In this document: one piece after another, positions 2,330 through 22,068 of the stretch
How the letters are laid out: every line of letters begins with the position of its first letter
Position numbering within the stretch: the first letter of the stretch is position 1
Sequence record: AY264777.1
Source of the DNA: Escherichia phage T7
Length of the DNA: 39,096 nt
Strand: one strand, 5' to 3'
Position numbers and translations under genes: made by a program
The notes under the pieces: model-generated
Seen by the model: only the letters and a program-made list of their open reading frames with translations
The model's database searches: none
Told to the model about the DNA's origin: nothing

Positions 2330-4981
2330 ATGAACACGATTAACATCGCTAAGAACGACTTCTCTGACATCGAACTGGCTGCTATCCCGTTCAACACTCT
2401 GGCTGACCATTACGGTGAGCGTTTAGCTCGCGAACAGTTGGCTCTTGAGCATGAGTCTTACGAGATGGGTGAAGCACGCTTTCGCAAGATGTTTGAGCGT
2501 CAACTTAAAGCTGGTGAGGTTGCGGATAACGCTGCCGCCAAGCCTCTCATCACTACCCTACTCCCTAAGATGATTGCACGCATCAACGACTGGTTTGAGG
2601 AAGTGAAAGCTAAGCGCGGCAAGCGCCCGACAGCTTTCCAGTTCCTGCAAGAAATCAAGCCGGAAGCCGTAGCGTACATCACCATTAAGACCACTCTGGC
2701 TTGCCTAACCAGTGCTGACAATACAACCGTTCAGGCTGCAGCAAGCGCAATCGGTCGGGCCATTGAGGACGAGGCTCGTTTCGGTCGTATCCGTGACCTT
2801 GAAGCTAAGCACTTCAAGAAAAACGTTGAGGAACAACTCAACAAGCGCGTAGGGCACGTCTACAAGAAAGCATTTATGCAAGTTGTCGAGGCTGACATGC
2901 TCTCTAAGGGTCTACTCGGTGGCGAGGCGTGGTCTTCGTGGCATAAGGAAGACTCTATTCATGTAGGAGTACGCTGCATCGAGATGCTCATTGAGTCAAC
3001 CGGAATGGTTAGCTTACATCGCCAAAATGCTGGCGTAGTAGGTCAAGACTCTGAGACTATCGAACTCGCACCTGAATACGCTGAGGCTATCGCAACCCGT
3101 GCAGGTGCGCTGGCTGGCATCTCTCCGATGTTCCAACCTTGCGTAGTTCTTCCTAAGCCGTGGACTGGCATTACTGGTGGTGGCTATTGGGCTAACGGTC
3201 GTCGTCCTCTGGCGCTGGTGCGTACTCACAGTAAGAAAGCACTGATGCGCTACGAAGACGTTTACATGCCTGAGGTGTACAAAGCGATTAACATTGCGCA
3301 AAACACCGCATGGAAAATCAACAAGAAAGTCCTAGCGGTCGCCAACGTAATCACCAAGTGGAAGCATTGTCCGGTCGAGAACATCCCTGCGATTGAGCGT
3401 GAAGAACTCCCGATGAAACCGGAAAACATCGACATGAATCCTGAGGCTCTCATCGCGTGGAAACGTGCTGCCGCTGCTGTGTACCGCAAGGACAAGGCTC
3501 GCAAGTCTCGCCGTATCAGCCTTGAGTTCATGCTTGAGCAAGCCAATAAGTTTGCTAATCATAAGGCCATTTGGTTCCCTTACAACATGGACTGGCGCGG
3601 TCGTGTTTACGCTGTGTCAATGTTCAACCCGCAAGGTAACGATATGACCAAAGGACTGCTTACGCTGGCAAAAGGTAAACCAATCGGTAAGGAAGGTTAC
3701 TACTGGCTGAAAATCCACGGTGCAAACTGTGCGGGTGTCGATAAGGTTCCGTTCCCTGAGCGCATCAAGTTCATTGAGGAAAACCACGAGAACATCATAG
3801 CTTGCGCTAAGTCTCCACTGGAGAACACTTGGTGGGCTGAGCAAGATTCTCCGTTCTGCTTCCTTGCGTTCTGCTTTGAGTACGCTGGGGTACAGCACCA
3901 CGGCCTGAGCTATAACTGCTCCCTTCCGCTGGCGTTTGACGGGTCTTGCTCTGGCATCCAGCACTCCTCCGCGATGCTCCGAGATGAGGTAGGTGGTCGC
4001 GCGGTTAACTTGCTTCCTAGTGAAACCGTTCACGACATCTACGGGATTGTTGCTAAGAAAGTCAACGAGATTCTACAAGCAGATGCAATCAATGGGACCG
4101 ATAACGAAGTAGTTACCGTGACCGATGAGAACACTGGTGAAATCTCTGAGAAAGTCAAGCTGGGCACTAAGGCACTGGCTGGTCAATGGCTGGCTTACAG
4201 TGTTACTCGCAGTGTGACTAAGCGTTCAGTCATGACGCTGGCTTACGGGTCCAAAGAGTTCGGCTTCCGTCAACAAGTGCTGGAAGATACCATTCAGCCA
4301 GCTATTGATTCCGGCAAGGGTCTGATGTTCACTCAGCCGAATCAGGCTGCTGGATACATGGCTAAGCTGATTTGGGAATCTGTGAGCGTGACGGTGGTAG
4401 CTGCGGTTGAAGCAATGAACTGGCTTAAGTCTGCTGCTAAGCTGCTGGCTGCTGAGGTCAAAGATAAGAAGACTGGAGAGATTCTTCGCAAGCGTTGCGC
4501 TGTGCATTGGGTAACTCCTGATGGTTTTCCTGTGTGGCAGGAATACAAGAAGCCTATTCAGACGCGCTTGAACCTGATGTTCCTCGGTCAGTTCCGCTTA
4601 CAGCCTACCATTAACACCAACAAAGATAGCGAGATTGATGCACACAAACAGGAGTCTGGTATCGCTCCTAACTTTGTACACAGCCAAGACGGTAGCCATC
4701 TTCGTAAGACTGTAGTGTGGGCACACGAGAAGTACGGAATCGAATCTTTTGCACTGATTCACGACTCCTTCGGTACCATTCCGGCTGACGCTGCGAACTT
4801 GTTCAAAGCAGTGCGCGAAACTATGGTTGACACATATGAGTCTTGTGATGTACTGGCTGATTTCTACGACCAGTTCGCTGACCAGTTGCACGAGTCTCAA
4901 TTGGACAAAATGCCAGCACTTCCGGCTAAAGGTAACTTGAACCTCCGTGACATCTTAGAGTCGGACTTCGCGTTCGCGTAA
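2330..4981 (+). CDS. 1: Gene 1, T7 RNA polymerase (883 aa)
   Basis: ORF 2330..4981; full-length single-subunit RNAP; specificity-loop region as recalled for wild type. Confidence 0.98.
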   Translation: MNTINIAKNDFSDIELAAIPFNTLADHYGERLAREQLALEHESYEMGEARFRKMFERQLKAGEVADNAAAKPLITTLLPKMIARINDWFEEVKAKRGKRPTAFQFLQEIKPEAVAYITIKTTLACLTSADNTTVQAAASAIGRAIEDEARFGRIRDLEAKHFKKNVEEQLNKRVGHVYKKAFMQVVEADMLSKGLLGGEAWSSWHKEDSIHVGVRCIEMLIESTGMVSLHRQNAGVVGQDSETIELAPEYAEAIATRAGALAGISPMFQPCVVLPKPWTGITGGGYWANGRRPLALVRTHSKKALMRYEDVYMPEVYKAINIAQNTAWKINKKVLAVANVITKWKHCPVENIPAIEREELPMKPENIDMNPEALIAWKRAAAAVYRKDKARKSRRISLEFMLEQANKFANHKAIWFPYNMDWRGRVYAVSMFNPQGNDMTKGLLTLAKGKPIGKEGYYWLKIHGANCAGVDKVPFPERIKFIEENHENIIACAKSPLENTWWAEQDSPFCFLAFCFEYAGVQHHGLSYNCSLPLAFDGSCSGIQHSSAMLRDEVGGRAVNLLPSETVHDIYGIVAKKVNEILQADAINGTDNEVVTVTDENTGEISEKVKLGTKALAGQWLAYSVTRSVTKRSVMTLAYGSKEFGFRQQVLEDTIQPAIDSGKGLMFTQPNQAAGYMAKLIWESVSVTVVAAVEAMNWLKSAAKLLAAEVKDKKTGEILRKRCAVHWVTPDGFPVWQEYKKPIQTRLNLMFLGQFRLQPTINTNKDSEIDAHKQESGIAPNFVHSQDGSHLRKTVVWAHEKYGIESFALIHDSFGTIPADAANLFKAVRETMVDTYESCDVLADFYDQFADQLHESQLDKMPALPAKGNLNLRDILESDFAFA

Positions 4982-8248: not shown

Positions 8249-8251
<3 letters not shown>

Positions 8252-8271
8252 TACGACTCACTATTAGAGAA
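8249..8271 (+). promoter_or_regulatory. T7 promoter phi2.5 (A-initiating class II promoter)
   Basis: taatacgactcactattagagaa. Confidence 0.8.
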
Positions 8272-10321: not shown

Positions 10322-10344
10322 TAATTGAACTCACTAAAAGGAAA
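10322..10344 (+). promoter_or_regulatory. T7 promoter phi3.8 (variant initially transcribed sequence)
   Basis: taattgaactcactaaaaggaaa. Confidence 0.75.
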
Positions 10345-10383: not shown

Positions 10384-12424
<2,041 letters not shown>

Positions 12425-12482
12425 CAGGATTCTTGATGACTTTCCAGACGACTACGAAAAGTTTCGCTGGAGAGTCCCATTC

Positions 12483-12505
12483 TAATACGACTCACTAAAG
12501 GAGAC
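12483..12505 (+). promoter_or_regulatory. T7 promoter phi4.3
   Basis: taatacgactcactaaaggagac. Confidence 0.85.
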
Positions 12506-18693: not shown

Positions 18694-18993
18694 ATGGGTA
18701 AGAAAGTTAAGAAGGCCGTGAAGAAAGTCGCCAAGTTCGTTAAGAAAGTCGTTAAGGAAGGGGCTCGTCCGGTTAAACAGGTTGCTGGCGGTCTAGCTGG
18801 TCTGGCTGGTGGTACTGGTAAAGCACAGATGGTGGAAGTACCACAAGCTGCCGCACAGATTGTTGATGTACCTGAGAAAGAGGTTTCCACTGAGGACGAA
18901 GCACAGACAGAAAGCGGACGCAAGAAAGCTCGTGCTGGCGGTAAGAAATCCTTGAGTGTAGCCCGTAGCTCCGGTGGCGGTATCAACATTTAA
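18694..18993 (+). CDS. 7.3: Gene 7.3, tail-associated protein (99 aa)
   Basis: ORF track 18694..18993; Lys/Ala/Gly-rich. Confidence 0.8.
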   Translation: MGKKVKKAVKKVAKFVKKVVKEGARPVKQVAGGLAGLAGGTGKAQMVEVPQAAAQIVDVPEKEVSTEDEAQTESGRKKARAGGKKSLSVARSSGGGINI

Positions 18994-19399: not shown

Positions 19400-21009
19400 T
19401 GGCTGAGAAACGAACAGGACTTGCGGAGGATGGCGCAAAGTCTGTCTATGAGCGTTTAAAGAACGACCGTGCTCCCTATGAGACACGCGCTCAGAATTGC
19501 GCTCAATATACCATCCCATCATTGTTCCCTAAGGACTCCGATAACGCCTCTACAGATTATCAAACTCCGTGGCAAGCCGTGGGCGCTCGTGGTCTGAACA
19601 ATCTAGCCTCTAAGCTCATGCTGGCTCTATTCCCTATGCAGACTTGGATGCGACTTACTATATCTGAATATGAAGCAAAGCAGTTACTGAGCGACCCCGA
19701 TGGACTCGCTAAGGTCGATGAGGGCCTCTCGATGGTAGAGCGTATCATCATGAACTACATTGAGTCTAACAGTTACCGCGTGACTCTCTTTGAGGCTCTC
19801 AAACAGTTAGTCGTAGCTGGTAACGTCCTGCTGTACCTACCGGAACCGGAAGGGTCAAACTATAATCCCATGAAGCTGTACCGATTGTCTTCTTATGTGG
19901 TCCAACGAGACGCATTCGGCAACGTTCTGCAAATGGTGACTCGTGACCAGATAGCTTTTGGTGCTCTCCCTGAGGACATCCGTAAGGCTGTAGAAGGTCA
20001 AGGTGGTGAGAAGAAAGCTGATGAGACAATCGACGTGTACACTCACATCTATCTGGATGAGGACTCAGGTGAATACCTCCGATACGAAGAGGTCGAGGAT
20101 ATGGAAGTCCAAGGCTCCGATGGGACTTATCCTAAAGAGGCTTGCCCATACATCCCGATTCGGATGGTCAGACTAGATGGTGAATCCTACGGTCGTTCGT
20201 ACATTGAGGAATACTTAGGTGACTTACGGTCCCTTGAAAATCTCCAAGAGGCTATCGTCAAGATGTCCATGATTAGCTCTAAGGTTATCGGCTTAGTGAA
20301 TCCTGCTGGTATCACCCAGCCACGCCGACTGACCAAAGCTCAGACTGGTGACTTCGTTACTGGTCGTCCAGAAGACATCTCGTTCCTCCAACTGGAGAAG
20401 CAAGCAGACTTTACTGTAGCTAAAGCCGTAAGTGACGCTATCGAGGCTCGCCTTTCGTTTGCCTTTATGTTGAACTCTGCGGTTCAGCGTACAGGTGAAC
20501 GTGTGACCGCCGAAGAGATTCGGTATGTAGCTTCTGAACTTGAAGATACTTTAGGTGGTGTCTACTCTATCCTTTCTCAAGAATTACAATTGCCTCTGGT
20601 ACGAGTGCTCTTGAAGCAACTACAAGCCACGCAACAGATTCCTGAGTTACCTAAGGAAGCCGTAGAGCCAACCATTAGTACAGGTCTGGAAGCAATTGGT
20701 CGAGGACAAGACCTTGATAAGCTGGAGCGGTGTGTCACTGCGTGGGCTGCACTGGCACCTATGCGAAACGACCCTGATATTAACCTTGCGATGATTAAGT
20801 TACGTATTGCCAACGCTATCGGTATTGACACTTCTGGTATTCTACTCACCGAAGAACAGAAGCAACAGAAGATGGCCCAACAGTCTATGCAAATGGGTAT
20901 GGATAATGGTGCTGCTGCGCTGGCTCAAGGTATGGCTGCACAAGCTACAGCTTCACCTGAGGCTATGGCTGCTGCCGCTGATTCCGTAGGTTTACAGCCG
21001 GGAATTTAA
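19399..21009 (+). CDS. 8: Gene 8, head-tail connector (portal) (536 aa)
   Basis: Internal ATG 19399 of ORF 19384..21009. Confidence 0.95.
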   Translation: MAEKRTGLAEDGAKSVYERLKNDRAPYETRAQNCAQYTIPSLFPKDSDNASTDYQTPWQAVGARGLNNLASKLMLALFPMQTWMRLTISEYEAKQLLSDPDGLAKVDEGLSMVERIIMNYIESNSYRVTLFEALKQLVVAGNVLLYLPEPEGSNYNPMKLYRLSSYVVQRDAFGNVLQMVTRDQIAFGALPEDIRKAVEGQGGEKKADETIDVYTHIYLDEDSGEYLRYEEVEDMEVQGSDGTYPKEACPYIPIRMVRLDGESYGRSYIEEYLGDLRSLENLQEAIVKMSMISSKVIGLVNPAGITQPRRLTKAQTGDFVTGRPEDISFLQLEKQADFTVAKAVSDAIEARLSFAFMLNSAVQRTGERVTAEEIRYVASELEDTLGGVYSILSQELQLPLVRVLLKQLQATQQIPELPKEAVEPTISTGLEAIGRGQDLDKLERCVTAWAALAPMRNDPDINLAMIKLRIANAIGIDTSGILLTEEQKQQKMAQQSMQMGMDNGAAALAQGMAAQATASPEAMAAAADSVGLQPGI

Positions 21010-21029
21010 TACGACTCACTATAGAGAGA
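21007..21029 (+). promoter_or_regulatory. T7 class III promoter phi9 (variant at +2)
   Basis: taatacgactcactatagagaga. Confidence 0.85.
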
Positions 21030-21108
21030 CCTCATCTTTGAAATGAGCGATGACAAGAGGTTGGAGTCCTCGGTCTTCCTGTAGTTCAACTTTAAGGAGA
21101 CAATAATA

Positions 21109-22032
21109 ATGGCTGAATCTAATGCAGACGTATATGCATCTTTTGGCGTGAACTCCGCTGTGATGTCTGGTGGTTCCGTTGAGGAACATGAGCAGAACAT
21201 GCTGGCTCTTGATGTTGCTGCCCGTGATGGCGATGATGCAATCGAGTTAGCGTCAGACGAAGTGGAAACAGAACGTGACCTGTATGACAACTCTGACCCA
21301 TTCGGTCAAGAGGATGACGAAGGCCGCATTCAGGTTCGTATCGGTGATGGCTTTGAGCCGACCGATGTGGACACTGGAGAAGAAGGCGTTGAGGGCACCG
21401 AAGGTTCCGAAGAGTTTACCTCACTGGGCGAGACTCCAGAAGAACTGGTAGCTGCCTCTGAGCAACTTGGTGAGCACGAAGAGGGCTTCCAAGAGATGAT
21501 TAACATTGCTGCTGAGCGTGGCATGAGTGTCGAGACCATTGAGGCTATCCAGCGTGAGTACGAGGAGAACGAAGAGTTGTCCGCCGAGTCCTACGCTAAG
21601 CTGGCTGAAATTGGCTACACGAAGGCTTTCATTGACTCGTATATCCGTGGTCAAGAAGCTTTGGTGGAGCAGTACGTAAACAGTGTCATTGAGTACGCTG
21701 GTGGTCGTGAACGTTTTGATGCACTGTATAACCACCTTGAGACGCACAACCCTGAGGCTGCACAGTCGCTGGATAATGCGTTGACCAATCGTGACTTAGC
21801 GACCGTTAAGGCTATCATCAACTTGGCTGGTGAGTCTCGCGCTAAGGCGTTCGGTCGTAAGCCAACTCGTAGTGTGACTAATCGTGCTATTCCGGCTAAA
21901 CCTCAGGCTACCAAGCATGAAGGCTTTGCGGACCGTAGCGAGATGATTAAAGCTATGAGTGACCCTCGGTATCGCACAGATGCCAACTATCGTCGTCAAG
22001 TCGAACAGAAAGTAATCGATTCGAACTTCTGA
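21109..22032 (+). CDS. 9: Gene 9, capsid assembly (scaffolding) protein (307 aa)
   Basis: ORF 21109..22032; highly acidic. Confidence 0.95.
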   Translation: MAESNADVYASFGVNSAVMSGGSVEEHEQNMLALDVAARDGDDAIELASDEVETERDLYDNSDPFGQEDDEGRIQVRIGDGFEPTDVDTGEEGVEGTEGSEEFTSLGETPEELVAASEQLGEHEEGFQEMINIAAERGMSVETIEAIQREYEENEELSAESYAKLAEIGYTKAFIDSYIRGQEALVEQYVNSVIEYAGGRERFDALYNHLETHNPEAAQSLDNALTNRDLATVKAIINLAGESRAKAFGRKPTRSVTNRAIPAKPQATKHEGFADRSEMIKAMSDPRYRTDANYRRQVEQKVIDSNF

Positions 22033-22045
22033 TAGACTTCGAAAT

Positions 22046-22068
22046 TAATACGATTCATTATAGGGAGA
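22046..22068 (+). promoter_or_regulatory. T7 class III promoter phi10 (two substitutions, -9 and -5)
   Basis: taatacgattcattatagggaga followed by the gene 10 leader ccacaacggtttccctctagaaataattttgtttaactttaagaaggagatatacat. Confidence 0.9.

Follow-up and report, generated by a model that had tools for sequence, protein, structure and literature searches.

The window, that is the whole 39,096-nucleotide stretch of DNA analysed here (Escherichia phage T7, record AY264777.1), carries the T7 phi9 late promoter at positions 21007-21029 of the forward strand, with the letters TAATACGACTCACTATAGAGAGA. Scanning for the 23-bp T7 class III consensus gave 22/23 identities at this site and a single mismatch. 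The scan returned 10 sites with at most three mismatches in the window and none in 100 shuffled sequences; perfect matches were found at four positions (17687, 26416, 33708 and 38371). Whole-genome alignment places the annotated phi9 +1 of NC_001604 (21865) on window position 21024, and the mismatch is thus the +2 base (window 21025, T7 21866). The locus comprises the following features:

21007-21029, forward strand: phi9 late (class III) promoter, -17 to +6, orthologous to NC_001604 21848-21870, annotated there as 'T7 promoter phi9'.
21007-21009, forward strand: stop codon TAA of gene 8, intact, at phi9 -17 to -15 (sequence; P82 annotation, offset +10).
21024, forward strand: presumed phi9 transcription start, +1 G unchanged (alignment to the annotated NC_001604 +1, 21865).
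21025, forward strand: phi9 +2 G->A transition in the context 5'-GG-3' (alignment, T7 position 21866).
21024-21108, forward strand: 5' leader of the phi9-initiated gene 9 mRNA, with the Shine-Dalgarno sequence AAGGAG at 21094-21099.
21024-21031 with 21072-21079, forward strand: 5'-terminal helix predicted by folding, leader nt 1-8 with nt 49-56.
21109-22032, forward strand: gene 9 (scaffolding protein), intact, with S82F, P105S and R270H (P82 annotation, offset +10).

The location is orthologous to that of phi9 in T7: the promoter overlaps the gene 8 stop, which Paff et al. 2018 (PMC6068830) also locate within phi9, and the gene 9 ATG follows 85 nt downstream. From -17 to -1, the recognition and melting region, all 17 of 17 positions are identical to TAATACGACTCACTATA. 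The +1 to +6 segment reads GAGAGA, not GGGAGA, so that the 23/23 match by which T7 class III promoters are defined is lost at +2. Because the A at +2 breaks GGGAGA, the phi9 of the window is, on its sequence, a mutated class III promoter and not a consensus one. In the alignment, the +2 base is A in the window and in isolate P82, and G in NC_001604, V01146, AY264774, K and K115. A preliminary description of this DNA had placed the promoter and the A at 21025 exactly where the alignment puts them, with G as the wild-type base, and had asked whether wild-type phi9 might itself depart from consensus at +2; the reference alignment shows the consensus GGGAGA there. Its base call was therefore right, but it missed the mutagenised state of the genome, the read-through of late transcription and the harder-hit phi10.

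The whole-window alignment took in T7+ (AY264774), the T7 reference, P82 (AY264778), K (AY264775) and K115 (AY264776). AY264774 is stated in the literature to represent the T7+ used by Bull et al. in 2003. Relative to T7+, the window carries 306 substitutions, of which 127 are G->A and 159 C->T, so that 286/306 (93%) are G:C->A:T; relative to K, the count is 666. The rate of G:C->A:T change depends on the preceding base, with 3.0% of sites changed in 5'-GG, 2.1% in 5'-AG, 0.8% in 5'-CG and 0.27% in 5'-TG. A bias towards 5'-purine-G is the signature of guanine O6-alkylation, as produced by nitrosoguanidine, which was reportedly the mutagen that Bull and colleagues applied to T7 in their 2003 study. 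GC->AT changes dominate after nitrosoguanidine treatment of T7 (PMC6042481). The window is a chemically mutagenised, mutation-accumulation T7 genome, and the spectrum points to a mutagen of the nitrosoguanidine type. The phi9 change fits this pattern: it is a G:C->A:T transition, and with the +1 G immediately before it, the +2 G forms a 5'-GG site, the most mutable context.

The load extends over the whole genome, with amino-acid changes in nearly every protein (gp16 has 17 and gp15 has 10, for instance). Premature stops are present in gene 0.4 (W28*, ~1255-1410) and gene 4.2 (W59*, ~12147-12485), two genes that the P82 record annotates merely as 'similar to gene'. Most of gene 0.7, the gene for the protein kinase / host shut-off function, is lost through an 819-bp deletion with its junction at window ~2146 (T7 2169-2987), and the left end of the window begins 23 bases inside the T7 reference sequence.

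Across the 17 T7 promoters of the window, the alignment revealed six substitutions, located in phi9, phi10, phi3.8 and phi2.5. A context-aware expectation is 2.6 (P ~0.05, uncorrected). When the window was pooled with the independent K line, the +1 to +6 segment showed 7 substitutions against 3.5 expected and the -17 to -1 segment 2 against 2.5. Neither an enrichment nor a depletion of promoter substitutions was significant, for the window alone or for the window pooled with K. With its purine-rich sequence, the GGGAGA start region is an easy target for this mutagen, and as a mutational event the phi9 +2 change is no more than chance gives in a genome with 306 substitutions. The other three damaged promoters, as defined by the alignment, are:

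22046-22068: phi10, TAATACGATTCATTATAGGGAGA, with -9 C->T and -5 C->T (22054 and 22058).
10322-10344: phi3.8 (class II), with +1 G->A (10339) and +5 G->A (10343).
8249-8271: phi2.5 (class II), with +3 G->A (8268).

The two phi10 changes lie at positions where single mutants are severely affected, -9T retaining 0.03% and -5T 0.7% of wild-type output (Komura 2018), and position -9 was called essential in the scan of Kartje 2020. From these values, phi10, the promoter that chiefly drives the capsid gene, is probably dead in the window genome. Its damage is far greater than the phi9 change and matters far more.

The history of these lesions can be followed in T7 isolate P82 (AY264778), which belongs to the series of Bull et al. 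2003 and shares the phi9 +2A and the phi10 -9T and -5T with the window. Between 20000 and 22500, the identity of the window is 100% with P82 and 99.5% with wild-type T7; outside this interval, 26 substitutions and a small number of short indels separate the two isolates. The differences are of two kinds only: at some of them P82 carries a derived state and the window the wild-type base, and at all the others the mutant base is that of the window, with P82 wild type. This pattern places the window as the mutagenised parent or a sibling of P82, and elimination within the accession series, in which AY264774 is T7+, AY264775 K, AY264776 K115 and AY264778 P82, leaves AY264777 and makes the window most likely isolate 'P'. 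Among the roughly 20 new substitutions of P82, G:C->A:T does not predominate, consistent with a recovery without mutagen, and P82 further differs from the window by a 12-bp in-frame deletion in gene 7.3 (18741-18752) and by single-base deletions in genes 2.8 and 4.7.

The gene of the T7 RNA polymerase differs between the two isolates:

2330-4981: gene 1 (T7 RNA polymerase), with 9 changes in the window, V137A, P274L, D351N, D366N, T375I, M490I, F546S, Q568H and G624S.

In P82, F546 and Q568 are in the wild-type state and codon 351 has changed a second time. Neither phi9 nor phi10 is restored to wild type in P82, and the phi3.8 and phi2.5 changes are likewise retained. With gene 1 sites wild type and the promoters unrepaired, fitness recovery appears to have targeted the polymerase and not the damaged promoters, although the gene 1 differences could alternatively be private changes of the window isolate. 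No change in the window polymerase was found that would affect promoter or initiation specificity, all 9 lying outside the specificity loop and the AT-rich recognition loop, which we take to span residues ~739-770 and ~93-101, respectively. Nor did a search for compensatory new T7 promoters, at up to six mismatches to the consensus, detect any beyond the wild-type set in the window or in P82.

What the +2 A would do to transcription can be considered step by step. First, as the -17 to -1 determinants are intact, polymerase binding and melting should be normal, and T7 RNA polymerase would still start at the same +1 G. Secondly, pppGpA would form instead of pppGpG, the second nucleotide being ATP and not GTP; the altered transcript 5' end announced in the preliminary description (pppGG to pppGA) is thus supported. 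Thirdly, phi9 would be expected to yield as much productive transcript as before or, at worst, about half of it, and its 5' ends would vary less through G-slippage, the in vitro 5' heterogeneity being 17% with GAG starts as opposed to 45% with GGG. Finally, gene 9 expression should persist through phi6.5 and the earlier promoters, since these read through and no T7 terminator stands before Tphi.

Two published data sets bear on the third step. The pooled in vitro assay of Komura 2018 (file S2), which included the same -17 to +6 sequence, gave 169+-19 for wild type and 76.4 and 72.1 for two barcoded +2A variants, that is ~44% of wild-type output on a template that has GAGA at +3 to +6 as in the window but is not the phi9 template. 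Kartje 2020 observed no loss at +2, also on a template other than phi9, and the two studies disagree on the direction of the effect. Taken together with the native use of A at +2, the small cost of phi9 ablation and the unrestored promoters of P82, they point to a change that is between neutral and an approximately two-fold promoter-down, with a small fitness cost, and the weakening of phi9 is probably only mild. The expectation of lowered productive initiation in the preliminary description is therefore plausible in its direction, with the ~44% coming from one pooled assay, but its strength was overstated.

The cost to the phage can be bounded by the engineered T7 in which the whole of phi9 was replaced, at an expense of ~4 doublings/h out of ~45 (Paff et al. 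2018, PMC6068830). Complete ablation is cheap, as transcripts started at upstream promoters continue to the single terminator, located after gene 10 (PMC6068830).

We consider it highly probable that the phi9 of the window is the late promoter of a mutagenised T7, most likely isolate P, whose +2 G->A is a nitrosoguanidine-type transition at a 5'-GG hot spot, carried as a passenger and neutral or slightly deleterious. The reading as a passenger follows from the mutagenised state of a genome with 306 substitutions.

The best surviving alternative, which we nevertheless judge unlikely, is that +2 G->A is strongly disabling and that phi9 is effectively lost, T7 RNA polymerase needing GTP at both +1 and +2. 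Older single-template work, by Milligan in 1987 and Imburgio in 2000, is said to have found sensitivity at +1/+2, which would count in its favor. So would the presence of G at +2 in 15/17 wild-type T7 promoters and the reduction to ~44% in Komura 2018; yet 44% is not a loss of function when -9T and -5T, in the same data, fall to 0.03% and 0.7%. The strong dependence on G at +2 assumed in the preliminary description proved too strong on two counts: Kartje 2020 saw no loss at this position, and A at +2 is native in T7 phi4c (GAGAGA) and phi1.1A (GAGGGA), the two remaining wild-type promoters, and in the left-end promoter of Yersinia phage phiA1122. Moreover, phi9 did not revert during the 82-passage recovery, though gene 1 sites did.

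Somewhat less likely again is a selective origin, in which +2A compensates for the crippled phi10 by retuning gene 9 against gene 10, either through promoter strength or through a refolding of the leader that sequesters the Shine-Dalgarno sequence. The retention of +2A in P82 and the nominal excess of promoter substitutions are consistent with it. However, the type, context and number of these substitutions fit mutation pressure alone, and +2A is absent from the independent K line as well as from K115. A weaker phi9 would also depress gene 10 mRNA still more, given that phi9 supplies as much 10A RNA as phi10 does (PMC6068830).

The leader route was explored by folding prediction. In the wild-type leader, nt 1-8 (GGGAGACC) are predicted to pair with nt 49-56 (GGUCUUCC) with a probability of 0.95-0.99 in folding windows of 60-200 nt. 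The +2A would turn the G2-C55 pair of this 5'-terminal hairpin into an A.C mismatch and may alter the folding of the leader: the predicted helix probability drops to ~0.03-0.05 in windows of 80-200 nt and is 0.74 in a 60-nt window. Part of the predicted +2A ensemble pairs the gene 9 Shine-Dalgarno sequence, whose predicted unpaired probability is 0.19 with +2A against 0.58-0.85 without it in windows of 80-120 nt, and this lower accessibility would speak for selection. The predicted effect weakens at 60 nt and fades at 300 nt, and for the Shine-Dalgarno sequence it is gone at 150-300 nt, which argues against it; the leader fold energies are no better than those of shuffled sequences (z -0.3 and -0.9). 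Among natural gene 9 leaders, three architectures (the T7 type, L010/L026 and L022) are all predicted to pair nt 1-8, with G2 facing a C, and the pairing register is predicted to be shifted in the variant L011. As the three architectures all pair nt 1-8, the 5' hairpin is plausible as a real feature. In its full form, this model has +2A acting mainly after initiation, the break of G2-C55 sequestering the gene 9 ribosome-binding site in phi9-initiated transcripts alone and the mutation being retained by rebalancing scaffold and capsid synthesis after the loss of phi10; we hold this to be quite improbable, and the predicted refolding is offered as a lead and not as a finding.

Two further explanations were rejected. 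A sequencing or assembly error might be suspected for a single-base difference in a Sanger genome of the early 2000s, but is very improbable given that the separately deposited descendant P82 has the same A and that the change has the type and context of the mutagen. A natural phi9 polymorphism among T7 strains, in favor of which nothing was found, is scarcely credible: when the 80-bp phi9 region was compared with 146 phage records, AY264778 was the sole exact full-length match among the matches listed, the wild-type and other laboratory T7 records among them showing one mismatch, and IMG/VR contained 0 contigs with GACTCACTATAGAGAGACC (…TATAGAGAGACC) against 22 stretches with GGGAGACC. The +2A variant was thus not found at phi9 in natural T7-like phages, in the phage collection or in IMG/VR.

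As a passenger in a mutagenised phage, the phi9 base change is of little weight alone. The finding is ordinary and already known, as the sequence is public in AY264778 and the lineage is published. Its value is illustrative: T7 tolerates changes in its two strongest late promoters, mild in phi9 and severe in phi10, and leaves them unrepaired during fitness recovery. RNA polymerase residues that are back to wild type beside promoters that are not fit the known redundancy of late transcription by read-through. More generally, departures from a consensus must be weighed against the mutation load of the genome in which they occur.

Comparison with known systems places the mutated promoter among several relatives. 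Wild-type T7 phi9 (NC_001604 / V01146, +1 at 21865) occupies the same locus, flanked likewise by genes 8 and 9, agrees from -17 to -1 and from +3 to +6, and differs from the window promoter by the +2 base alone, G instead of A. Within T7, middle-class (class II) promoters are weaker than late ones. The class II promoter phi4c (CAATCCGACTCACTAAAGAGAGA; …AAAGAGAGA) natively has the GAGAGA start of the window phi9, and phi1.1A (…TATAGAGGGA) starts with GAGGGA; unlike the window phi9, both are also off consensus upstream (-17, -13/-12 and -2).

In the Yersinia phages phiA1122 and YpsP-G, the promoter at the left end, in the phiOL position, contains a 23-mer identical to the window phi9 (TAATACGACTCACTATAGAGAGA). 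It lies ~360 bp from the left end of the phiA1122 genome, ahead of a GA repeat, and does not serve gene 9; phiA1122 keeps GGGAGACC in its own phi9 and phi10, unlike the window phi9. Promoters with a GAGAGA start are found at the phiOL position in several natural T7-group phages (L035 at 357-379, which is phiA1122, L052, L036, L040 and L042), and in phiA1122 a long (GA)n run follows.

The engineered phi9 knock-out of Paff et al. 2018 (PMC6068830) is the closest functional parallel, a lesion that removes strength at the same promoter and reveals the redundancy provided by read-through. The knock-out replaces the whole promoter, whereas the window changes one initially transcribed base, and the expected effect of the +2 A would be a fraction of the ~4 doublings/h lost in that construct.
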